The notes beneath the pieces were generated by a model, which was not told the origin of the DNA, did not search any database, and saw only the letters and a program-made list of their open reading frames with translations. A DNA stretch of 64,000 nt, from the NCBI RefSeq assembly GCF_003991155.1, contig NZ_CP031294.1; one strand, written 5' to 3'. Made by a program: the position numbers and the translations under genes. This document shows, in pieces, positions 5,291-60,728 of the stretch. How positions within the stretch are numbered: the first letter of the stretch is position 1; each line of letters begins with the position of its first letter. Source of the DNA: Escherichia coli. GTDB taxonomy: Bacteria > Pseudomonadota > Gammaproteobacteria > Enterobacterales > Enterobacteriaceae.

Positions 5291-5316
5291 TATAGGTATA
5301 TACTTACCTACCTATG
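5291..5316 (-). promoter_or_regulatory. L-type dyad motif (TAAGTA/TACTTA family)
   Basis: ATAGGTA-n10-TACCTAT with an inner GGTATATACTTACC. The gene strand reads GGTAAGTATATACCTATAAT, upstream of 5241. Confidence 0.45.
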
Positions 5317-5431: not shown

Positions 5432-8400
5432 TCAGTTACTTGTTGCCCCAACAGTACCTGCAAATTTCAGCCATTGACCTGACGGACTTCTATTACTACG
5501 GTAATGATAAACGAGGATTGCGTTTGTAACTCCACCGTAGTCAGCTTTATGTGACGTTGTTAAACGAATTGTATAATCACCGTTAGGTAGATTAAAAACT
5601 TCGATTATAGATTCTGCTAATTCTACAGCACCAAATCCCGTTATATTGTTGATACTGCCAGCATTGAATCCCATAGCATCGCCAAAGCCAATCCAATAAC
5701 TTTTGCTAAACGCCCCATTTGATTTTAGGTGGCTAATGAATGTGGACAAACTCATGCCCATATCCCCACCTGAAACAGAGGAAGTTCGCACAGTCATACT
5801 TGGAAGAGCACTGCTCTTCACATAGGAACTTAGAAGGTTTGTTACCTCTGTTTTCGTATAGGCATTAAGGTTAGCCGCAGTCAAAGTAATATCGGCAGAG
5901 CCATCAAACGCCACACCAGCAATTTTCCTTGCTGTCTGCAATTTTGTGGCAGTGGCAGCATTACCAGTAGTGTTCTGATTACCGGTTGTATTCACACCAG
6001 GTATTGAATCCTTAGCGGTATATACCTGCGCCCACGCAGACCATGCCGCATCAGTGGTATCTCTTCGGGAGCGAATGAAAACCGGCGCATGTGCACCGCT
6101 CGTACCACTCCAGCCAATAAGCAACTCGCCCTCACCAGCAGCACTCGCACCTTTCATGTGCAATACGTTGCCATACGTGGTCGGGTAGCTATTGCTGTAC
6201 GCCTCGTACATTTGAATGCCAGCAGTACCTTGAGCAGAACCGCTTAACGCCGTAACTCGGCCACGAGATACCAATGTATTAATGTTGATATCGCCTGAGC
6301 CATCAAACTTAACACCATTGATGTTTCTCGCTGTTTGCAACTTCGTAGCTGTTGAAGCATTACCGTTCAAACTACCATTTACGCCACCAGTCACATTTAG
6401 TCCATTACCAATTGATACAGCACCGCTGGTATTATTAATTGTAATAGGTCGCAAACCGTTCCATGAACCTAATGTGTCTCCTGATGCTGTTAGCATGAAA
6501 TATGTGTTCGATCCATCATTACGGATAAAGAACCCAAAGCTACCGTAAGCAATGCGGAAACCATTTGCATATTTTGAAATGATCTCGCCAGAAGATGTCA
6601 AACCTCCAGATAATGTACCACCGGTAAGAGGTAATGCACCGACATCAGAGGCTGTTGGTTTGTTTTTCGTGTTATATACTCTTCGCCATCCTGGAGAATA
6701 ATCTGTGCCATTAAATACATAGATAAACTCCGCATTAGTGAGAGCACCAGAGACACTCGTCGTTGTGGCCGTTGTTATACGGATCGTATAATTGTTTGAG
6801 CTACTACCGTTATTAAATACCTCTATAACAGCTCCTGCCAATGGAATAACGCCACAACCAGTTTCACTATTTGGTATGGTTGCACTATTGGCATAGGCCC
6901 ACGCACATCGAGCAATCCATGACTTTGTGTTAAATGCTCCATTATTTTGCAATAACGTCACTAACTGTGCTGTTGTTATTGCTCCGCCATTACTTCCTGT
7001 AGTTAACCAACCAGTAGGAGATGCCGGGCAACCTATATTTGCTGGCGACAAGGAAATATTTGCCGAGCCGTCAAACGACACCCCATTAATAGTACGCGCA
7101 GTCTGCAACTTCGTAGCAGTAGCCGCGTTGCCCGTTGTATTCTGATTACCAGTCGTATTAACACCTGGCAAATTAATATTCGCAGTACCATCAAAGCTCA
7201 CGCCGCCGATAGTTCTTGCCGTCTGAAGTTTTGTAGCAGTTGCAGCATTACCAGTGGTGTTCTGATTACCCGTAGTATTTACACCTGGAAGGTTGATATT
7301 TGCAGAACCGTCGAAACCAACTCCACCGATAGATCTTGCCGTCTGCAATTTCGTGGCTGTACTTGCATTACCATTCAATGAACCAGTTAATCCACCTGTA
7401 ACAGACAACGGACCTGAAACTGTTCCTCCGGTTGTTGGCAGTGCTCCAATATCTGATGGTGTAGGTTTCTGATGTGAGCTATACATCGTATAAACAACAC
7501 CATCGGTAACGCTGGAAGGCTTACTCGCTGAATATGTTGGCGAGGTATAAATAGAAACTGTCGCATTTGCAGTACAATCCCAATGGATATTTACACGAGT
7601 CGCATAATTGCCAATCTCAACGTAAATATCATATGTATCGCCGGATGTGTTGATCCAGGCGAAATTCGTTAATCCGACAGCTGTACGCTTCCACAAAGCA
7701 CCTGTAATCCCTTTGGGGTTTCCATTGCCTGCTCGTAGAACCAGTTCTGAAATGCCTGCCTGATGTGGGGAGCCGACGTTGTAACCAGCGCCACCAATCA
7801 ATGCGATGTAAACGATGGAACTCGCTTGTGGCATGGTAACCGTAGCCAGTTTGAACCACCCTGCCCCGCCAGAGAAAGACATCGTTACTGAATTTAAAGT
7901 ACCAATATCTTTCGGCGTTAATGTGATATCCGCAGTCAGTGCTTTACCGTTAACTTTTCGGTTAGATGGCACCCTGCTATTCGCATTGTCATTGGCTGCT
8001 TTAACTGCTTTTGGCGTTGCGGCCAGCGATTCACTGGTGCTGTCGACAGCACTGCTAAGTTTCACAACACCTTTAGTTGTAAGGCTTGCGTCTTCCATCG
8101 CAACTGCACCGGCAATCTCTTCAGCACGATCAGCAGCAGCTTCCGCACGGGTCGCAGCGGATTCAGCAGCAGTTTTGCTCTGAGATGCTGCCGTCGCACT
8201 GCCTGCCGCCTCTGTTGCTTTCGTGGATGCCGTCGTGGCACTGCCCTTCGCTGCTGACGCCTGTCTGGTCGCCTCATCTTTTGAAGCAGACGCAGATGAT
8301 GCCGATGACGCCGCCGAACTGGCGGACGATGCGGCAGCCGTTTTTGAGGATTCTGCGCTGGTTTCCGACGCTTTCGCGTTCGTTTCGGATGTCTTCGCTG

Positions 8401-19800: not shown

Positions 19801-21421
19801 CGCCAACTACCCCCATGATCCCTGCTCGCATCAGTTTGAACGCAACCATCGCGGCCACGACCTTACCGAGATTAATTACCAGCTCTTGGTTCTTTGCTAA
19901 CCATTGAGCAAGCTGACGCAACCCATCGATTGCCGTCGTTAACCCCGAGCCTAAAGAATTGGCAAACGAAATCCCTTCGGCGCTATTCATGATTGAAGCC
20001 AGTTCTTTCATCCCCTTCGATAGAGAATCCAGATATCCGGCCTGACCAACCCGATCAGCAAATAACGTGAATGACGTCTGAAGTTGCGCCAGCGCACCTG
20101 TGTAGGTTTGCATCATGTCTTTCGCTGCGTTCTCATTCTCCGCACGCAGACCAACAAACATCAGAGACAACGCCTGTTTTGCCTCAACCGTACCGCTGGC
20201 AACGGCTTTAGTCAGTTCCCCCATAGTGATGCCTGCGGCGTCTGCCATTGCCTGCATCGCGTTAGGAACGGCTTCACCTAATTGCTGACGTAGCTCTTCC
20301 ATTGACACAACGCCCTTACCGGACATCTGCTGAACGGCCACAGCCGCACGTTTCAACAGCTCACTATCACCACCAAAACGAGCAACGGAGTCCACCAGCG
20401 CCTTCAGAGAACCATCGGTTGGATCTAAGCCAGCAGAACGAAACTTCACGAAGGAATCTGTTAACGCCTGCATCGCGAACGGCGCATTTTGCGCCATGTC
20501 TACGATGTACTTCATATCATCAGCGGCAGCCTGGCCCGGGTTGGACTTCTCCTTATTCAACCCTCGAAGCATCACCCGCATACGTTCCATTTCGGCCGCA
20601 GCTTCAACAATAGGCTTCTGCCACCCAAACATGATGTCAGTAACCGTTCTGGCTGCATCTCCGATCTCGCCAAGCAGGAAAATGTTGCCACGAAGGCCAG
20701 AGAACATACCTCCTTCGTTACTTTTACCGCTATGGCCAGAAGCGCCGCTACGCCGCCCGCTACCACCATCGCCACTTCCAGATGTACGAACGCGTACCGG
20801 CTTGCTAATCAGTTGCTGACGTCCGATAACTTCGTCCATCTGCTCACGAACCTTTTTCAGTCCCTCGGCAGCCTGACTCGTTGTGACACCCCAATTACTG
20901 AGTCGCTTCGTCGTGGTATTAAGGCGCGTATTCATGCCACTCACGGACGCAGAGGCTTCTTTGGCCTCCGTACCAAAGCGGCTTGCGCTTTTGCTTGCAT
21001 AGGTCGCCCAATCAGAGAAATCATTTAGCTCTGATTGCACTTTACGTAATGACGCGGTGAGTTTATCTACTGAAGAAGTTGTCGTATCGACGCGCTCAAT
21101 CAGGGCTTTAAGACCAGAATTGAGGCTGGTGATGTTGCCACGCATTTTACGCGTAGCATCTGAAGCAAGCTCAAAACCGGCAGCTACATCCTGTAGTTTA
21201 TCTGCCGTAGAATCGAGCTTGCTTTCCAGAACGCCAATGATACGGGCGACCGAACCCAAAGAGCGTTCAAAGGTTTGGATTTTTTGAGCAGGCTTTGTTA
21301 CCTGCTCACCAAATCGAGTAAGCAGTTTCCCCGCACGATCGATTGACGCTGTAAACTGTTTGTCTTCCAGCGACAGGATAAACTCTACGTTTTGTGACAT
21401 TCCCTTGTCATCCTCTGCCAA
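16829..21421 (-). CDS. tail tape measure protein
   Basis: 1530 aa, helical, with hydrophobic central segments and a Gly-rich C-terminus. Position lies between the G/GT and gpM-like genes. Confidence 0.9.
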   Translation of the reverse strand: MAEDDKGMSQNVEFILSLEDKQFTASIDRAGKLLTRFGEQVTKPAQKIQTFERSLGSVARIIGVLESKLDSTADKLQDVAAGFELASDATRKMRGNITSLNSGLKALIERVDTTTSSVDKLTASLRKVQSELNDFSDWATYASKSASRFGTEAKEASASVSGMNTRLNTTTKRLSNWGVTTSQAAEGLKKVREQMDEVIGRQQLISKPVRVRTSGSGDGGSGRRSGASGHSGKSNEGGMFSGLRGNIFLLGEIGDAARTVTDIMFGWQKPIVEAAAEMERMRVMLRGLNKEKSNPGQAAADDMKYIVDMAQNAPFAMQALTDSFVKFRSAGLDPTDGSLKALVDSVARFGGDSELLKRAAVAVQQMSGKGVVSMEELRQQLGEAVPNAMQAMADAAGITMGELTKAVASGTVEAKQALSLMFVGLRAENENAAKDMMQTYTGALAQLQTSFTLFADRVGQAGYLDSLSKGMKELASIMNSAEGISFANSLGSGLTTAIDGLRQLAQWLAKNQELVINLGKVVAAMVAFKLMRAGIMGVVGAGSQMVSTFATMATAIQTPFNLGATAVTRFNRAARMGLAPIPSLIFAIRGAITGLKGAFAGLTAFIAANPIGAAFTVATVAVAGLITYMTMLRSETSKVVDEIRKIPEAMTAAKRAQMADRAEKLEKQILADQRALKTGEGVNYVSNSAGVITHKESKADIEARLKKNQEEYQKITGTIALGDGAVAKRLAKEAAESQIEKIRAENQIFAATFVKARQEALDKIQKINDDGSLSDDEKNKLLAPLRETVNKSYLEPAQKLVDSLSSRKNATEKQIATLNDQLEKAKKDGNTEQIQKLQGSIRGYQEHLEAVAQELTQAEFERDNAAKTGKGVMSNQGTVLGLGTTDKAAQKALAQYMRNQMDSATYQRTLPDGTPMMDFEGKPIIGPKQLKTQLNLQKASSASSLEKMSDEERAAAIAALTKAREQDAAAAEKAAQRSANASQRAAKKEQAAQQKLAAGYQKALDKADQLMGQMGESSKATVSFDQSLRDTTKSLTDLANAVPNEFITQEMIDKAKKRLEDLKNATPEYREMFNRRNVEQMISTWAPEADSIISAGYTPSREEKVADFEDTYNRNLKALIELRDKASDPKVVALYTKKINQLIAAGNTALIKETGTATQKLALEYENLAEQIESTWTDLFSGLTDVLTDFVINGKMSFSSLSQSILKDITNMVVKSQITLPLMNMLGMGTTAAGSSQSGNLLTGVASAVANQGVRISNTVNGDKSVGEATKETSSSVTGLGQTTQQTTSAIGTATNAIGSWVSGLFNSTEAKDAETKAVKDSIFSMQNLSSVTGALSAAFAMLGANASGSGNKWLNFGATVASGLVSVWAGGGFDGLMSGSSGSTSGFNNLTSSAADGTNGIPAIPKFANGGIFGKDGVIPLRAYQKGGIANSPQLALFGEGDMNEAYVPLPDGRTIPVTLSTDGMSGGGNVLSPVSIEINVHSDGSTTESGDTESIWNNAAQRMKAIALETIAQEKRPGGSLNPNTQRN

Positions 21422-22075
21422 ATATTTGCATCAGTTGCTCTTTGGCGTCAGGGTCTGCCTTATCCTGGCTTGGATCGTAGACTTTATCTGTTACGACTGG
21501 TCTTCCAATCCTGAGTTGCAAACCCTCCATGAACGCCTTCACAGCCTCGCCATCCGCCTGGGACGCACGAGCGACTTGTAAGTTGCGGACATCCTCTTCC
21601 GCACGCAGACGGTCTATATTGCGACTGAGCATCCAGAACATCGTGAGAGGAACGTTCAGTAGCTCTAATGGCGACACGGCGTAGTGAGCAACTACACGAC
21701 TGAAATAGAATCCGAGATCTATTGAGACGGTCCTTGTCCCGGATTCATCGCGGGAAATTACTTTGCCCCTTCGCCAGCCGCTTTTTCGTTTTCTTCATCA
21801 ATCACTTCCATAGCGAAGGTGAAGATCTGCTGGAGTTGCGGAACAGTCAGTTTTTCAAGAACTTCGTCAGGTACTGAAGGGATAACCTTACGAACCAGAT
21901 CTGCATAAGCTGTCACTTGCTCAACAGGAGACATGTTCATGAGATCTTTGCCTTCCATCTGCTTGATGGAAACGAACAGACCTACCGTCATTTCAACGAT
22001 GGGATATTCCTGACCGCCAAATTTGATGCTTTTCTTCGGAGGCAGAATGGAATCGAGATCGAGTAATTTGGTCAT
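21408..22075 (-). CDS. tail assembly chaperone fusion (gpGT analogue) via a -1 programmed frameshift
   Basis: The -1 frame is open from about 21790 through the G stop to 21408. Candidate slip sites GAAAAAG (21781-21787) or CAAAG just before the TAA (21761-21765). Confidence 0.55.
21758..22075 (-). CDS. tail assembly chaperone (gpG analogue)
   Basis: 105 aa acidic protein immediately upstream of the tape measure gene, ending ...EENEKAAGEGAK. Confidence 0.75.
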   Translation of the reverse strand: MTKLLDLDSILPPKKSIKFGGQEYPIVEMTVGLFVSIKQMEGKDLMNMSPVEQVTAYADLVRKVIPSVPDEVLEKLTVPQLQQIFTFAMEVIDEENEKAAGEGAK

Positions 22076-41010: not shown

Positions 41011-41046
41011 AATAACAAATTGTTTTCTTGTTGGTGTTAATTATCG
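41011..41046 (-). promoter_or_regulatory. E-type promoter/leader module
   Basis: The gene strand reads CGATAATTAACACCAACAAGAAAACAATTTGTTATT...AAGGAATTAATC-ATG. Confidence 0.55.
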
Positions 41047-45956: not shown

Positions 45957-46256
45957 TTACCAGTTCCAGCACTCAAGCCCTTCAACGACCGGCGCACCAC
46001 AATCAAAATGTACAGAGTCAAAGCCTACATCAAGTACTTTCTGAATGTTAGCAATCGCGCCTTCGGATATACCATATCGACGCAAGTCCTCTTTCCAGAC
46101 ATCATCCTGTAACCCAGCGTGGACAATACAACCGCCGTCAATTTGTGAAACCCAATCCAGCTCATTGCTTGCGATCATGAATCGGCGAGCATCTTCCTCT
46201 GATGTATGAGATGAGCTGATCAATGCCACCTGGTAGGCTTGGGTAATGTTCAACAT
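45957..46256 (-). CDS. hypothetical protein (99 aa)
   Basis: ORF with RBS CGGAG and an E-type module upstream. Ends ...PVVEGLECWNW. Confidence 0.55.
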   Translation of the reverse strand: MLNITQAYQVALISSSHTSEEDARRFMIASNELDWVSQIDGGCIVHAGLQDDVWKEDLRRYGISEGAIANIQKVLDVGFDSVHFDCGAPVVEGLECWNW

Positions 46257-46270
46257 TTCAACAACTCCGA

Positions 46271-46304
46271 AACAATTTGTTTTCTTATGTGGCTTATTAT
46301 CTCA
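46271..46304 (-). promoter_or_regulatory. E-type promoter/leader module
   Basis: The gene strand reads TGAGATAATAAGCCACATAAGAAAACAAATTGTTTCGGAG. Confidence 0.55.
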
Positions 46305-46318
46305 ATCAACAAAAGGTA

Positions 46319-46335
46319 GAAAACAAATTGTTTTA
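46319..46335. promoter_or_regulatory. E-type palindrome core (opposite orientation); last phage-type motif before metG
   Basis: AGAAAACAAATTGTTTT on the plus strand. Confidence 0.4.
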
Positions 46336-46369
46336 GGGTTTGTTAAAGTCAGAAGGGGTTGTGTCTATA

Positions 46370-46399
46370 TGAAAATGCCCAGCGTGTTGCCGGGCATTG
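46370..46399 (-). terminator. metG rho-independent terminator
   Basis: Minus strand: AATGCCCGGCA-acac-GCTGGGCATT followed by TTCATAT, 19 nt after the stop. Confidence 0.7.
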
Positions 46400-46417
46400 C
46401 GAACAGAGGTTGTTTAA

Positions 46418-48451
46418 TTACTTAACCTGGTGGCCTGGTTTAGCACCAGCATCCGGGCTTAACAGGAAGATATCTTTCCCGCCGGGGCCAGCAGCCATCA
46501 CCATGCCTTCGGAGATACCGAAGCGCATTTTACGCGGAGCCAGGTTAGCCACCATAATGGTGTGACGACCAATCAGTGCCTGTGGGTCTGGATAAGCAGA
46601 ACGGATGCCTGAGAAGACATTACGCTTTTCACCACCGAGATCCAGTGTCAGACGCAGCAGTTTGTCAGAACCTTCGACAAACTCCGCGTTTTCAATCAGC
46701 GCCACACGCAGGTCAACTTTGGCGAAGTCGTCAAAGGTGATGGTTTCCTGAATCGGGTCGTCAGCCAGTGGGCCAGTTACCGGTGCAGCTGTGGCTTTCA
46801 CTTCTTCTTTGGATGCTTCCACCAGTGCTTCCACCTGTTTCATATCGATACGGTTATACAATGCCTTGAACGGATTCACTTTATGGCCCAGCAGCGGTTG
46901 CTGGATACCATCCCAGGTCAGTTCTGTATTCAGGAATGCTTCTGCACGTTCAGTCAGTTTCGGCAGTACCGGTTTCAAGTACGTCATCAGCACGCGGAAC
47001 AGGTTAATGCCCATAGAGCAAATCGCCTGCAGATCGGCATCGCGTCCTTCCTGCTTCGCCACCACCCACGGAGCCTGTTCATCGACATATCGGTTAGCCA
47101 GGTCAGCCAATGCCATGATTTCACGGATAGCTTTACCAAATTCGCGGCTTTCCCATGCTTCGCCAATCACTTCAGCGGCATCAGTAAAGGTTTTGTACAG
47201 TTGCGGGTCAGCCAGTTCGCTTGCCAGCACGCCGTCAAAACGCTTGTTGATAAAGCCTGCATTACGGGAGGCCAGGTTAACCACTTTGTTCACGATATCG
47301 GCATTCACGCGCTGAACGAAATCCTCCAGGTTGAGATCGATATCATCAATGCGCGAAGAGAGTTTCGCAGTGTAGTAGTAACGCAGGCTGTCGGCGTCAA
47401 AATGATTCAGCCAGGTGCTGGCTTTAATAAAGGTGCCGCGAGACTTGGACATCTTCGCGCCGTTCACCGTCACATAGCCGTGAACAAACAGGTTGGTCGG
47501 CTTGCGGAAGTTGCTGCCTTCCAGCATGGCAGGCCAGAACAGGCTGTGGAAGTAAACAATATCTTTACCGATGAAGTGGTACAGCTCGGCTGTGGAGTCT
47601 TTCTTCCAGTATTCATCGAAGCTGGTGGTATCGCCGCGCTTGTCGCACAGATTCTTGAAGGAACCCATGTAGCCAATCGGCGCGTCCAGCCAGACGTAGA
47701 AATATTTGCCCGGCGCGTTCGGAATTTCAAAACCGAAGTAAGGCGCATCGCGGGAGATATCCCACTGTTGCAGGCCGGATTCAAACCACTCCTGCATTTT
47801 GTTCGCCACCTGCTCCTGCAACGCACCGCTGCGGGTCCATGCCTGCAACATTTCGCTGAAAGAGGGCAGATCAAAGAAGAAGTGTTCGGAATCACGCATT
47901 ACCGGGGTAGCGCCAGAAACCACCGATTTCGGCTCGATCAATTCAGTCGGGCTATATGTTGCGCCGCAGACTTCACAGTTATCGCCGTATTGATCTGGCG
48001 CTTTACATTTCGGGCAGGTGCCTTTCACAAAACGATCCGGCAGGAACATGCCTTTTTCCGGGTCGTACAACTGAGAGATAGTGCGGTTTTTAATAAAACC
48101 GTTCTCTTTCAGGCGAGTATAGATAAGCTCAGACAGCTGGCGGTTCTCTTCGCTGTGCGTCGAGTGATAGTTGTCATAGCTGATGTTAAAGCCTGCGAAA
48201 TCAGTCTGGTGTTCCTGACTCATTTCGCCAATCATCTGCTCCGGTGTGATACCAAGCTGCTGTGCTTTCAGCATGATCGGCGTACCGTGGGCATCGTCGG
48301 CACAGATGAAATTAACCTCGTGGCCGCGCATTCGCTGGTAACGAACCCAGACATCAGCCTGGATGTGCTCCAGCATATGGCCGAGGTGGATTGAGCCGTT
48401 AGCGTACGGCAGCGCGCACGTCACCAGAATTTTCTTCGCGACTTGGGTCAT
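46418..48451 (-). CDS. metG: methionyl-tRNA synthetase
   Basis: 677 aa from [29 protein letters not shown]. Has KMSKS and the C-terminal tRNA-binding domain. Near-identical to E. coli/Salmonella MetRS from memory. The ORF-track start at 48580 is an upstream in-frame extension. Confidence 0.97.
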
Positions 48452-48608
48452 AGTAGGCATTACTTCTTTGTAGTGAAAAGGGGCTTGATAGTAACAAAAT
48501 GGCCTTATGTCTGCCATGTGATAACAGCATTTCTCATAAATGATTAAATGTCGTAGCTGGAGTACACTACAAGGCGACAATTGCGCAAATTAAAATAAAG
48601 GAGACGGG

Positions 48609-49709
48609 ATGAGCGAGTCCAAATCGCCGGATGCCCTGAGAGCAATGGTAGCCGGTACGCTGGCTAATTTTCAGCACCCAACCCTGAAACACAACCTGAC
48701 TACGCTTAAAGCGTTACACCATGTTGCGTTGATGGATGACACACTGCATGTCGAACTAATCATGCCTTTCGTGTGGAATAAGCCTTTTGAAGACCTGAAA
48801 GAGCAATGTAGTGGTGATCTGCTCCGTATCACTGGCGCAAAGGCTATTGACTGGAAGCTGTCGTACAACATTGCCACGCTTAAGCGCGTCAAAAACCAAC
48901 CAGGCATTAATGGCGTTAAGAACATTATCGCCGTCAGCTCAGGCAAGGGCGGCGTGGGTAAATCCTCCACGGCGGTAAACCTGGCACTGGCGTTGGCTGC
49001 TGAAGGTGCGAAAGTTGGTATTTTGGATGCCGATATCTATGGTCCATCAATTCCAACCATGCTGGGCGCGGAAAACCAACGTCCAACCTCACCTGACGGT
49101 ACTCACATGGCACCTATCATGTCTCATGGCCTGGCAACCAACTCTATTGGTTATCTGGTCACCGACGACAATGCAATGGTGTGGCGTGGACCGATGGCCA
49201 GCAAGGCGCTGATGCAGATGTTGCAGGAAACTCTATGGCCTGATCTGGACTATCTCGTTCTCGATATGCCGCCGGGCACTGGTGATATTCAGTTGACGCT
49301 GGCGCAGAACATTCCTGTAACTGGTGCGGTTGTGGTAACTACGCCGCAAGACATCGCGCTGATCGATGCGAAGAAAGGCATTGTGATGTTCGAAAAAGTC
49401 GAAGTGCCGGTACTGGGTATCGTCGAAAACATGAGTGTGCATATTTGCAGTAACTGCGGTCATCACGAGCCAATTTTTGGCACCGGTGGCGCACAGAAAC
49501 TGGCCGAGAAATACAACACGCAGTTGTTAGGCCAAATGCCACTTCATATCTCTCTTCGTGAAGATCTGGATAACGGAACACCAACCGTTATTAGTCGTCC
49601 AGATAGCGAATTTACGGCTATTTATCGTGACCTCGCAGATCGCGTTGCCGCCCAAATGTATTGGCAAGGTGAAGTAATACCTGGCGAAATCGCATTCCGC
49701 GCAGTGTGA
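48609..49709 (+). CDS. apbC: Fe-S cluster carrier ATPase Mrp/ApbC
   Basis: 366 aa. P-loop SSGKGGVGKS and the CSNCGHH motif. Divergent from metG, as in enterobacterial chromosomes. Confidence 0.95.
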   Translation: MSESKSPDALRAMVAGTLANFQHPTLKHNLTTLKALHHVALMDDTLHVELIMPFVWNKPFEDLKEQCSGDLLRITGAKAIDWKLSYNIATLKRVKNQPGINGVKNIIAVSSGKGGVGKSSTAVNLALALAAEGAKVGILDADIYGPSIPTMLGAENQRPTSPDGTHMAPIMSHGLATNSIGYLVTDDNAMVWRGPMASKALMQMLQETLWPDLDYLVLDMPPGTGDIQLTLAQNIPVTGAVVVTTPQDIALIDAKKGIVMFEKVEVPVLGIVENMSVHICSNCGHHEPIFGTGGAQKLAEKYNTQLLGQMPLHISLREDLDNGTPTVISRPDSEFTAIYRDLADRVAAQMYWQGEVIPGEIAFRAV

Positions 49710-49710
49710 T

Positions 49711-49737
49711 AAAAGGCGGTGCATTGCACCGCCTAAT
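49711..49737. terminator. bidirectional hairpin between convergent apbC and humD
   Basis: AGGCGGTGCA-t-TGCACCGCCT flanked by AAAA and TAAT. Confidence 0.6.
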
Positions 49738-49745
49738 CAGTTCTC

Positions 49746-50135
49746 CTACATCACGGGACAATCATCAAACTCGCCACTTCTTGCGTCGTTGATAATGTGA
49801 GTGATCACACCAAACACGGCATTGCTGCCCGTGCATCCATCGTCATCCTTTGGCAATGCTTCCTTCTTACCGGTTCTTAAATCCTCCAGATGCTGACGTG
49901 GGTACTTCCGGTATCTTTTTACGCGATATTCCCCATCCAGAGCGCATACAAGCAGAGAACCATCAACCGGGGTAAGTGAGGAATCGACCACCAGCAATGC
50001 ACCCTGTAATATTCCCTCACGATGATGACTATCAGCTGCCCTCATGAAGTAGGTCGCTGAAGGATGTCTAATTATCTGCTGATCAAGAGAAATACGGCTC
50101 TCAGCATAATCCGCCGCAGGAGAAGGGAAGCCCAT
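49746..50135 (-). CDS. humD: pre-processed UmuD'-like protein (P1 HumD-like)
   Basis: 129 aa, starting M-GFPSPAADY. This is exactly at the residue after the UmuD Cys24/Gly25 self-cleavage site. Retains the Ser (AADS) and Lys (VKRY) region. No umuC follows. Confidence 0.8.
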   Translation of the reverse strand: MGFPSPAADYAESRISLDQQIIRHPSATYFMRAADSHHREGILQGALLVVDSSLTPVDGSLLVCALDGEYRVKRYRKYPRQHLEDLRTGKKEALPKDDDGCTGSNAVFGVITHIINDARSGEFDDCPVM

Positions 50136-50233: not shown

Positions 50234-50485
50234 TTATTTTTTGGCTATATCTTCTTTCTGATATACCGGATCGTTTCCTTTTGGCAGCAGGAGGCTTAAC
50301 TGCCGGTAGTGCCGTAGCCGTTCCATGAAATAGGTGCGCAGGTTCTCAGGTTGCTCACGGGCTACCTGTTCCGCTATGACGGGTATGTTCAATCGCTCTT
50401 TGTAGGCAACCCCCCTGGCAGCCAGGTCAACGTTAACTTTATTCCTTTCTTCCTGGCTTTTGGCTGCTATGTTCCAGTTGCTCAT
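50234..50485 (-). CDS. hot: DNA polymerase III theta-subunit homologue (P1 Hot-like)
   Basis: [43 protein letters not shown] aligns with the E. coli HolE segment [43 protein letters not shown], recalled from memory. Confidence 0.8.

Positions 50486-52396: not shown

Positions 52397-52400
<4 letters not shown>
50838..52400 (+). CDS. hsdM: type I R-M methyltransferase subunit, type IC (EcoR124 family)
   Basis: 520 aa. [25 protein letters not shown]..., SAM motif DPAAGSGS, catalytic NPPYS. Essentially EcoR124I HsdM from memory. Confidence 0.95.
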
Positions 52401-53656
<1,256 letters not shown>

Positions 53657-59087: not shown

Positions 59088-59119
59088 AAACAAGTTGTTT
59101 TCTTATTGGCTTTATTGTG
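59088..59119 (-). promoter_or_regulatory. E-type promoter/leader module (right of the metG-hsd block)
   Basis: The gene strand reads CACAATAAAGCCAATAAGAAAACAACTTGTTTAAG. Confidence 0.55.
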
Positions 59120-59367: not shown

Positions 59368-59792
59368 TAGAGATAAGCATCCAGTGACAACTGAAGCGCC
59401 TGGGCGATCTTTTTCAGTGCCTGCTCTTCTTGTTCACCAATGCCATCCTGATCGGCAATATCAAGGCACAGACACAGAACATCGACCGCCTCTGGAGTAC
59501 CCGCAATATCAGACAGCTCACGAATAGCCTGTGCATTAGCAGAACGAGGGGACGCTTCGTAACGAGCACGGATATTGGCGCTCATTTGGGCAATTTCACC
59601 AGCAAACGGAGAAAACGCAGGCAGAGCTGCAATTGTCTTCTCAAGAATGGCAATTTCTTTTGCGTCACATGTGCCGTCGGCATAGGAGATCATGTACGCG
59701 CCCCACACGGTGGCCTCAACCGCATCACGGTTCTCCATTTTTTTGACTTCGATAACTGCTTTACGAGTTTTCTTTTTGAAGAAACCTAACAT
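59367..59792 (-). CDS. TerB-family (tellurite-resistance-like) protein
   Basis: 141 aa. Architecture and motifs (ISYADGTCDAKEIAILEK..., DIADQDGIGEQEEQALKKIAQAL) resemble TerB repeats (ADG-x-x-x-x-E). Assigned from memory. Confidence 0.55.
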   Translation of the reverse strand: MLGFFKKKTRKAVIEVKKMENRDAVEATVWGAYMISYADGTCDAKEIAILEKTIAALPAFSPFAGEIAQMSANIRARYEASPRSANAQAIRELSDIAGTPEAVDVLCLCLDIADQDGIGEQEEQALKKIAQALQLSLDAYL

Positions 59793-60706: not shown

Positions 60707-60728
60707 GATAGGTAAACACTTACTTACC
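60707..60728 (-). promoter_or_regulatory. L-type dyad motif (right of the metG-hsd block)
   Basis: The gene strand reads GGTAAGTAAGTGTTTACCTATCAT. GGTAA/TTACC arms. Confidence 0.4.

Follow-up and report, generated by a model that had tools for sequence, protein, structure and literature searches.

How a pair of housekeeping genes comes to lie among phage sequences, and what it does there, is the question raised by a 64,000-nucleotide stretch of Escherichia coli DNA (contig NZ_CP031294.1, hereafter the window), in which metG, encoding methionyl-tRNA synthetase (MetRS), and the divergent apbC (mrp), encoding an iron-sulfur (Fe-S) cluster carrier, are enclosed by dispersed phage-like motifs. The initial annotation had offered two explanations, the capture of a ~3.4-kb chromosomal segment with an extra MetRS by a mobile element, queried as a phage-plasmid, or an islet of core genes flanked by two related elements, and it had raised the idea that a mobile MetRS serves in resistance or immunity. 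The first explanation proved right, as the same phage-plasmid is present on both sides of the module. As to function, which we infer from comparative data, we consider it probable that metG and apbC are a host-derived auxiliary or back-up module that this phage-plasmid lineage has kept for a long time.

The replicon was identified through an 8-kb stretch around metG and apbC that matches NZ_OW849379.1 (E. coli isolate 162 plasmid P2) at 100%. This record is a circle of 110,667 bp, from whose coordinates 32000 is subtracted to obtain those of the window, and the region is ~98% identical to Escherichia phage Cyrano (the plasmid pLF82). The record carries plasmid and replication genes (repA, dnaE, primase, a DnaB-like helicase and ligase), a complete siphovirus structural set (tape measure, tail, capsid, portal and terminase) and genes of nucleotide metabolism (nrdAB, thyA, the dihydrofolate reductase gene folA, and grxA), and with SSU5-type plasmids of Salmonella, Yersinia and Klebsiella it shares portal and terminase genes at 80-83% identity. 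With plasmid replication genes and a full siphovirus structural set on one circular replicon, the element is by its gene content an SSU5-like phage-plasmid, and the window is part of it. Cyrano has likewise been described as an SSU5-like phage-plasmid, with spontaneous production and ~5.5 copies per cell, and virions of matching dimensions have been provisionally attributed to this close relative of the window element (PMC9928086). The tentative label of phage-plasmid was thus borne out, together with circularity and plasmid size. The match to a circular 110.7-kb plasmid rules out a chromosomal islet between two prophages, and since the same element is present on either side of an extra copy of the genes, neither two related elements nor a sole chromosomal copy between independent prophages accounts for the locus.

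Both genes are intact and score far above the NCBIfam cut-offs, in keeping with the divergent pair of 677 and 366 residues originally described (Table 1). MetRS matches its family model at equivalog level, with 1019.8 bits (cut-off 587) over residues 4-677 of 677, and contains the catalytic, zinc-knuckle, anticodon-binding and C-terminal tRNA-binding/dimerization domains, the last of these matching PF01588 (87.3 bits, residues 581-674) and TIGR00399 (163 bits). Its signature motifs are kept (HLGH22, KMSKS333, CPKC146/CEVC159 and W462, the anticodon-recognizing tryptophan that is W461 in mature numbering). Plasmid metG is 93.8% identical to K-12 metG in nucleotides and 98.8% in protein, and each of the 8 of 677 residues that differ is in a state found in some Escherichia chromosome and lies outside the HIGH, KMSKS and zinc-knuckle motifs and W462. 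Between the plasmid (12) and Escherichia chromosomal (7) copies there are zero fixed amino acid differences. Because it has no fixed plasmid-specific residue, the plasmid MetRS is, as judged by its sequence, an ordinary host-type enzyme that cannot be distinguished from host MetRS, and because of its identity to K-12 MetG and its likeness to the solved E. coli enzyme (1F4L, 1QQT), it is predicted to aminoacylate both tRNA(Met) and tRNA(fMet).

ApbC also meets its model at equivalog level (759.3 bits, cut-off 348), contains a deviant Walker A motif (GKGGVGKS112) and a CXXC motif (CSNC280), and has 8ZKC as its nearest solved chain. The protein is 94.8% identical to K-12 ApbC, with nucleotide identity to Escherichia of 82%. 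In a comparison of 19 copies, plasmid ApbC lacks three N-terminal residues and carries more than 20 fixed substitutions, all of them either at or before residue 89 in the N-terminal part or from residue 299 onward in the C-terminal part, with just three singleton changes in the near-invariant P-loop core. Fe-S cluster binding and transfer by the plasmid protein are therefore expected, on account of its identity to K-12 ApbC and its near-invariant central P-loop domain.

The check for a chromosomal metG/apbC pair, suggested at the outset, gave a clear result. A search of 5426 complete E. coli genomes returned 5429 chromosomal matches to the module at ~90% identity and a further 232 matches on plasmids at 95-100%. 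The plasmid module is a second copy, as nearly all complete E. coli genomes searched hold the chromosomal pair, and ~4% of these genomes carry metG/apbC on a phage-plasmid; some carry CTX-M-15. In PLSDB, 207 records match the module, 189 of them at ≥95%, and the carriers are nearly all non-mobilizable plasmids of 100-120 kb from E. coli, Shigella and E. albertii. The portal-terminase segment of the lineage is found at ≥95% in 185 PLSDB plasmids, compared with the 189 that hold the module, and none of its relatives at 80-83% (305 Klebsiella records, and Enterobacter, Yersinia pestis, Salmonella and Citrobacter) is among the PLSDB metG hits; SSU5 itself is not among the phage-database hits for the module. 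The module is thus present in roughly all members of the Escherichia lineage and absent from the sister lineages. Candidates for independent capture by other phages, the only further hits in the phage database (Pseudomonas phage Y5, Acinetobacter MD-2021a contigs and Salmonella S.Kent fragments, at 68-84% identity), were set aside, as they look like host DNA within prophage predictions. Both genes are also intact in a 63.8-kb degraded derivative, NZ_CP034165.1 (E. albertii p2014C-4015-1). This plasmid has no annotated virion genes, its dnaE annotation is shortened and precedes an HNH endonuclease gene, and it contains insertion sequence elements, acquired hdeAB and a GNAT/DUF1778 toxin-antitoxin pair.

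The two genes of the module have had different histories. At the nucleotide level, plasmid metG has 93-94.4% identity with each Escherichia species, which equals the depth of divergence among those species, and 87% identity with Citrobacter. Plasmid apbC is 82-84% identical to Escherichia and ~82% to Citrobacter; among Escherichia species apbC is 89-92% identical. Synonymous divergence (dS) from K-12 is 0.32 for plasmid metG and 1.56 for plasmid apbC, and the values of 0.74 and 1.18, respectively, between K-12 and Citrobacter indicate that the two genes normally do not differ as much as they do in the plasmid. The intergenic region is 67% identical to Escherichia and 75% to the C. freundii group, and holds a segment of ~25 nucleotides that is common to Citrobacter and Salmonella and absent in Escherichia. 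Neighbor-joining groups the plasmid apbC copies in a single clade that joins outside Escherichia on a long branch, and the plasmid metG copies interleave with Escherichia chromosomal ones. These comparisons indicate a non-Escherichia donor for apbC and the promoter region, and so the segment is not ordinary core DNA of the present host; metG is Escherichia-like (93-94%). Faster evolution does not explain the apbC distances: the plasmid gene is 17.5% divergent from Citrobacter and 17.7% from K-12, which are themselves 15.9% apart, so that there is little excess branch length, and the intergenic indel of Citrobacter/Salmonella type counts further against this reading. Recent capture from the present host is excluded as well, as metG is 6% and apbC 17-18% divergent from every Escherichia species. 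A donor scan of one genome per GTDB species gave no ApbC above 95% protein or ~84% nucleotide identity.

Stretches of metG in individual plasmids agree with one chromosomal allele or another at every one of 62-97 successive polymorphic sites (334-514 nucleotides), values reached in 0 of 2000 permutations; the Shigella sonnei plasmid gene equals the K-12 allele over 334 nucleotides, and that of pM-199-4197 equals the E. ruysiae allele over 514 nucleotides. The same test applied to apbC gave only runs of 50-70 nucleotides inside the invariant P-loop domain, which we attribute to rate heterogeneity. The plasmid metG is thus a mosaic that host chromosomal metG has repeatedly overwritten by gene conversion, so that its product cannot be told apart from host MetRS. 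In the simplest model, the two neighboring genes would have been taken up together, once and long ago, from an enterobacterial lineage outside those sampled, and the recipient would have been the ancestor of the Escherichia SSU5-like phage-plasmids (pLF82/Cyrano, pECOH89). This lineage would since have kept the module as a fixed part, and the chromosomal copies of its hosts would have converted metG recurrently. Conversion would be limited to the metG coding sequence because its flanks are without a homologue, and apbC would have remained unconverted because it is too diverged to recombine. The tracts show recombination between plasmid and chromosome at metG, and with the slight excess of chromosomal matches over genomes they could suggest that metG is mainly a homology anchor, a site for chromosomal recombination leading to cointegration, Hfr-like (high-frequency-of-recombination) mobilization or allele exchange. 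We regard this as extremely unlikely: recombination is the expected by-product of two ~94% identical copies, and an anchor leaves the protein-level constraint on both genes unexplained.

That constraint was measured among 12 plasmid and phage copies, with the ratio of nonsynonymous to synonymous divergence (dN/dS) among Escherichia chromosomes for contrast. For metG, mean dS within the plasmids is 0.216 and dN/dS is 0.016, compared with a chromosomal dN/dS of 0.018; for apbC the values are 0.131, 0.010 and 0.013, respectively. Although their genes carry 8-25 synonymous differences, most plasmid copies encode one and the same ApbC protein, and the apbC genes of the window and PhiR41_1 are separated by 25 synonymous and 0 nonsynonymous changes. 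Both intact genes are therefore under purifying selection as strong as that on the chromosome. A neutral origin, with illegitimate recombination bringing in the module and inheritance alone keeping it, without any function for the element, would suit a segment that lies in a variable accessory region, is without a known phenotype and includes a metG that is barely transcribed in lysogens. However, neutrality cannot be reconciled with such low dN/dS at an appreciable dS (0.13-0.22) and the failure to find any disrupted copy, at least in the case of apbC, which receives no conversion and whose mostly identical proteins despite many silent changes rule out passenger DNA, and the flanks turn over while the module stays. 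We consider neutral persistence most unlikely.

Nor do the data favor the suggestion that the synthetase is a resistance or immunity gene, one that would protect either the phage or its host cell against an inhibitor of MetRS or a toxin acting on tRNA(Met) or Met-tRNA. It is true that metG is element-borne, retained throughout the lineage and under selection, that over-dosage of the target is conceivable at ~5.5 plasmid copies per cell, and that this family of elements has precedents for defending tRNA function. The SSU5-encoded hydrolase PaSpo reverses or repairs a toxin-installed tRNA modification (PMC11559606), Thr-UGU and Tyr-GUA tRNAs are targets of known tRNA-cleaving defense nucleases and can be replaced by phage tRNAs, and a phage tRNA-Thr(UGU) rescues cells from P2-OLD (PMC12445682). 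On NZ_OW849379.1, beyond the window, a cluster of four tRNA genes (Ser-TGA, Thr-TGT, Tyr-GTA and Asn-GTT) is located at record positions 21251-21808. A resistance-type synthetase would be clearly divergent, including in its inhibitor-binding region. In contrast, the 12 plasmid sequences show no fixed difference from the 7 chromosomal ones, the eight differences from K-12 are natural Escherichia polymorphisms outside the key motifs, no resistance substitutions were found, chromosomal alleles have been repeatedly copied into plasmid metG, and its transcription in lysogens is near background. Neither an inhibitor biosynthesis cluster nor a cognate toxin is among the annotations of the replicon, where the neighbors of the module are phage early genes, humD/hot and a type I restriction-modification system. 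Self-protection against a GNAT (KacT/AtaT-like) toxin of the element was rejected, as this toxin occurs in Cyrano and the E. albertii derivative and is not annotated on the window plasmid, and so it cannot explain universal retention of the module. Together these results make a resistance role very unlikely.

Expression separates the two genes. In the LF82 transcriptomes (S1 Table of PMC9928086), which describe the lysogen only, Cyrano metG has ~16 normalized counts, close to the ~7-10 of the structural genes, and it is at the floor of the scale in the other tabulated conditions; at ~94% identity most metG reads should map uniquely. The apbC orthologue has ~92 normalized counts and was classed by the authors as a 'moron', 9-fold above background, and humD has ~148, with values higher still in macrophage samples (PMC9928086). 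The main rival to our reading accordingly takes apbC as the selected gene and metG as a linked passenger that shares its promoter region and is kept intact largely by chromosomal conversion. Besides the difference in expression, it can draw on ApbC proteins that stay identical in most copies with no conversion by the host, on the fixed substitutions in the N- and C-terminal parts that make plasmid ApbC a distinct orthologue, and on the survival of the module in the virion-less E. albertii derivative. It has difficulty, however, with metG itself, which is full length in 12 of 12 copies examined and annotated as an intact coding sequence in every plasmid among the matches listed, and whose dN/dS within plasmids equals the chromosomal value; moreover, a 2-kb passenger could be deleted without harming apbC, yet no such deletion occurs among the matches listed. 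This explanation is possible but, in our judgment, unlikely.

We favor an auxiliary or back-up role for the module. MetRS would be an ordinary, fully active enzyme, the element's own source of Met-tRNA(Met) and Met-tRNA(fMet) charging, and would act as an auxiliary or back-up translation factor rather than as one with altered specificity or resistance. Because it is almost silent in the only available lysogen transcriptome, it most probably matters outside quiescent lysogeny, during lytic growth, stress or attack on the host translation apparatus; ApbC would be constitutively expressed in the lysogen and is probably an extra Fe-S cluster carrier there. The back-up role fits the other host-like genes for self-sufficiency (nrdAB, thyA, folA, dnaE, ligase, grxA, RNase H, Hot and the four tRNA genes), and it is supported by a translation theme that includes the Thr-UGU and Tyr-GUA tRNA genes, the capture of der by two sister plasmids and PaSpo of SSU5. 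A narrower counter-defense version holds that a host or rival effector disables Met-tRNA charging, the initiator tRNA or Fe-S-dependent steps, and that MetRS and/or ApbC, with the tRNA genes (and der in some relatives), are spare parts that restore translation during infection; recurrent gene conversion would keep the spare matched to the current Escherichia host. We think this version distinctly doubtful.

Several points weigh against the back-up reading. The plasmid metG transcripts are near background in LF82 lysogens, and the use of metG in lytic growth or stress is a guess. Retention of the module in the defective E. albertii derivative speaks for a benefit in the plasmid state rather than in the lytic one. 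Conversion imports chromosomal alleles that are already purified, and this lowers the dN/dS of metG even under weaker selection on the plasmid. The choice of MetRS over other synthetases is explained only by its adjacency to apbC.

The coordinates of the module and its surroundings are collected in Table 1. The right boundary of the module lies 10-17 nucleotides past the apbC stop codon. The two hairpins that had been called native terminators are real, and the one on the metG side is kept in the plasmid copies; their nativeness is unproven, as neither has homology to the chromosomal terminators of the 10 species sampled. Where apbC and humD converge, the hairpin is followed by a U-tract on the minus (humD) strand only, and so it would terminate humD at least as much as apbC. 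It shows a compensatory double change among sister plasmids (GGCGGTGC/GCACCGCC versus GGTGGTGC/GCACCACC), and pM160133_p3 keeps the left arm but pairs it with another right arm located farther away. In the intergenic region a TGnTACTAT extended -10-like element for metG was spotted by eye on the minus strand; a consensus promoter scan gave 5 hits versus 5.2 expected, with zero within the metG/apbC intergenic region.

Table 1. Features of the module, its borders and its surroundings, in window coordinates.
Feature	Position	Strand	Remarks
FljA-like protein, 200 aa	37540-38139	plus	281.7 bits to PF03614, 'repressor of phase-1 flagellin'
DUF5983 gene	45957..46256	minus	next minus-strand gene left of the module
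Two AAACAANTTGTTT palindromes	46270-46282, 46321-46333		between the metG terminator and the DUF5983 gene
Hairpin downstream of metG, intrinsic terminator	46374..46398	minus	10-bp stem then UUUU; folding free energy (dG) -20.1 kcal/mol, z -5.1
metG, methionine--tRNA ligase, 677 aa	46418..48451	minus	full length; NCBIfam NF001100
Divergent metG/apbC promoter-leader region, 157 bp	48452..48608		putative promoter assignment
apbC (mrp), Fe-S cluster carrier P-loop NTPase, 366 aa	48609..49709	plus	NCBIfam NF008669
GC-rich hairpin between convergent apbC and humD	49714..49734		9-bp stem; dG -19 kcal/mol, z -6
humD, P1-like	49746..50135	minus	219.8 bits to HumD model; ~87% nucleotide identity to P1 humD; context, outside the captured segment
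hot, Pol III theta homologue	50234..50485	minus	context, outside the captured segment
hsdS, type I restriction-modification specificity subunit	52397..53656	plus	12-nucleotide tandem repeat at 52944-52988
TerB-domain protein	59370-59792	minus	host-like accessory gene
RNase H domain protein, 214 aa	60727-61368	minus	155.5 bits; host-like accessory gene

The motifs that first suggested one element on both sides of the module were largely recovered. The E-type palindrome AAACAANTTGTTT has 16 strand-matches in the window versus 0.27 expected, to the left at 41013, 42248, 43151, 46270 and 46321, plus 2313 and 31871, and to the right at 59088 and 59817. It often extends as ..TTGTTTTCTTnTTGG and recurs beside the starts of small minus-strand genes, and it looks like an operator or promoter-leader of early or accessory genes. 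The L-type dyad TAGGTAAGTGATTACCTA (TAGGTAAGT..TTACCTA; TAGGTAAGTnnTTACCTA-like) has 7 hits with ≤3 mismatches versus 0.01 expected, at 5293, 9505, 26504, 29927 and 35218 on the left and at 60709 and 62924 on the right. The 57-bp inverted-repeat element described with these dyads was not found again as such; in its place only 30-nucleotide arms were found, at 46256-46285 and 46318-46347. The P1-like humD abuts apbC as described. In sister plasmids the left flank varies (DUF5983 or DUF1380 genes), as does the right (humD, der, polysaccharide deacetylase and others), while the module is constant. In NZ_CP148383.1 (locus 6551-8023) and NZ_CP072690.1 (an E. marmotae plasmid), der, encoding a ribosome-biogenesis GTPase, replaces humD directly 3' of apbC; it is ~91% identical in nucleotides to the E. 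coli chromosome and is a second translation housekeeping gene captured at the same locus.

Elsewhere in the window, the FljA-like protein of the phage-plasmid might affect host flagellin expression. The tandem repeat of hsdS encodes three copies of TAEL in the central region of the specificity subunit; for type IC systems of the EcoR124 family, the number of TAEL copies determines how long a spacer the recognition site contains.

The window is another member of a known element and does not differ from it in kind: pLF82/Cyrano (OV696614), pECOH89 (NC_023916) and PhiR41_1 carry the same module in the same place at 95.7-98.5% nucleotide identity. The genes metG and apbC are already annotated in these records, and in some 200 database records overall. 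We found no discussion of the module in the searchable and readable literature on SSU5-like Escherichia plasmids. It belongs to the host-derived translation genes of viruses and plasmids, and its evolutionary behavior is unusual and informative. It offers a natural contrast between an apbC that has drifted 17% from the host at silent sites and a co-captured metG that is held host-like by conversion, a contrast useful for the study of plasmid-chromosome recombination, the age of the phage-plasmid lineage and the reasons why mobile elements keep duplicates of housekeeping genes. In practice, typing based on metG, the calling of tolerance mutations and read mapping can all be confounded by the presence of a second copy of the gene; no new resistance mechanism is indicated at present.

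Duplicate aminoacyl-tRNA synthetases that serve in resistance or self-immunity, such as MupA/IleRS2, the Agrobacterium LeuRS AgnB2 and S. pneumoniae MetRS2, are reportedly strongly divergent and insensitive to the inhibitor. Like them, the plasmid metG is a second synthetase gene on a mobile or accessory element beside the housekeeping copy; unlike them, its product is without a fixed difference from the host enzyme, and it scores 33 bits with the MupA/MupB models, versus a cut-off of 1900. Synthetases also occur as auxiliary translation genes of viruses, in giant viruses (mimivirus MetRS) and in huge or jumbo phages. The likeness to these lies in a host-type synthetase accompanied by tRNA genes, presumably lowering dependence on host translation. 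However, the carrier here is a 110-kb temperate phage-plasmid, and the gene arrived as part of a chromosomal pair with its own promoter region, is nearly identical to that of the host and recombines with it. Closer at hand, the P1-type humD (UmuD') and hot (Pol III theta) that adjoin the module are likewise small host-derived homologues of housekeeping genes on a phage-plasmid, but they are diverged phage versions common with P1, whereas metG is kept host-identical by conversion. As a rule, a synthetase borne by a virus or plasmid is a resistance gene that has diverged, or else it belongs to a giant virus or jumbo phage; the plasmid MetRS is of neither kind, being host-identical and fixed in a common, clinically relevant lineage of E. 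coli phage-plasmids.

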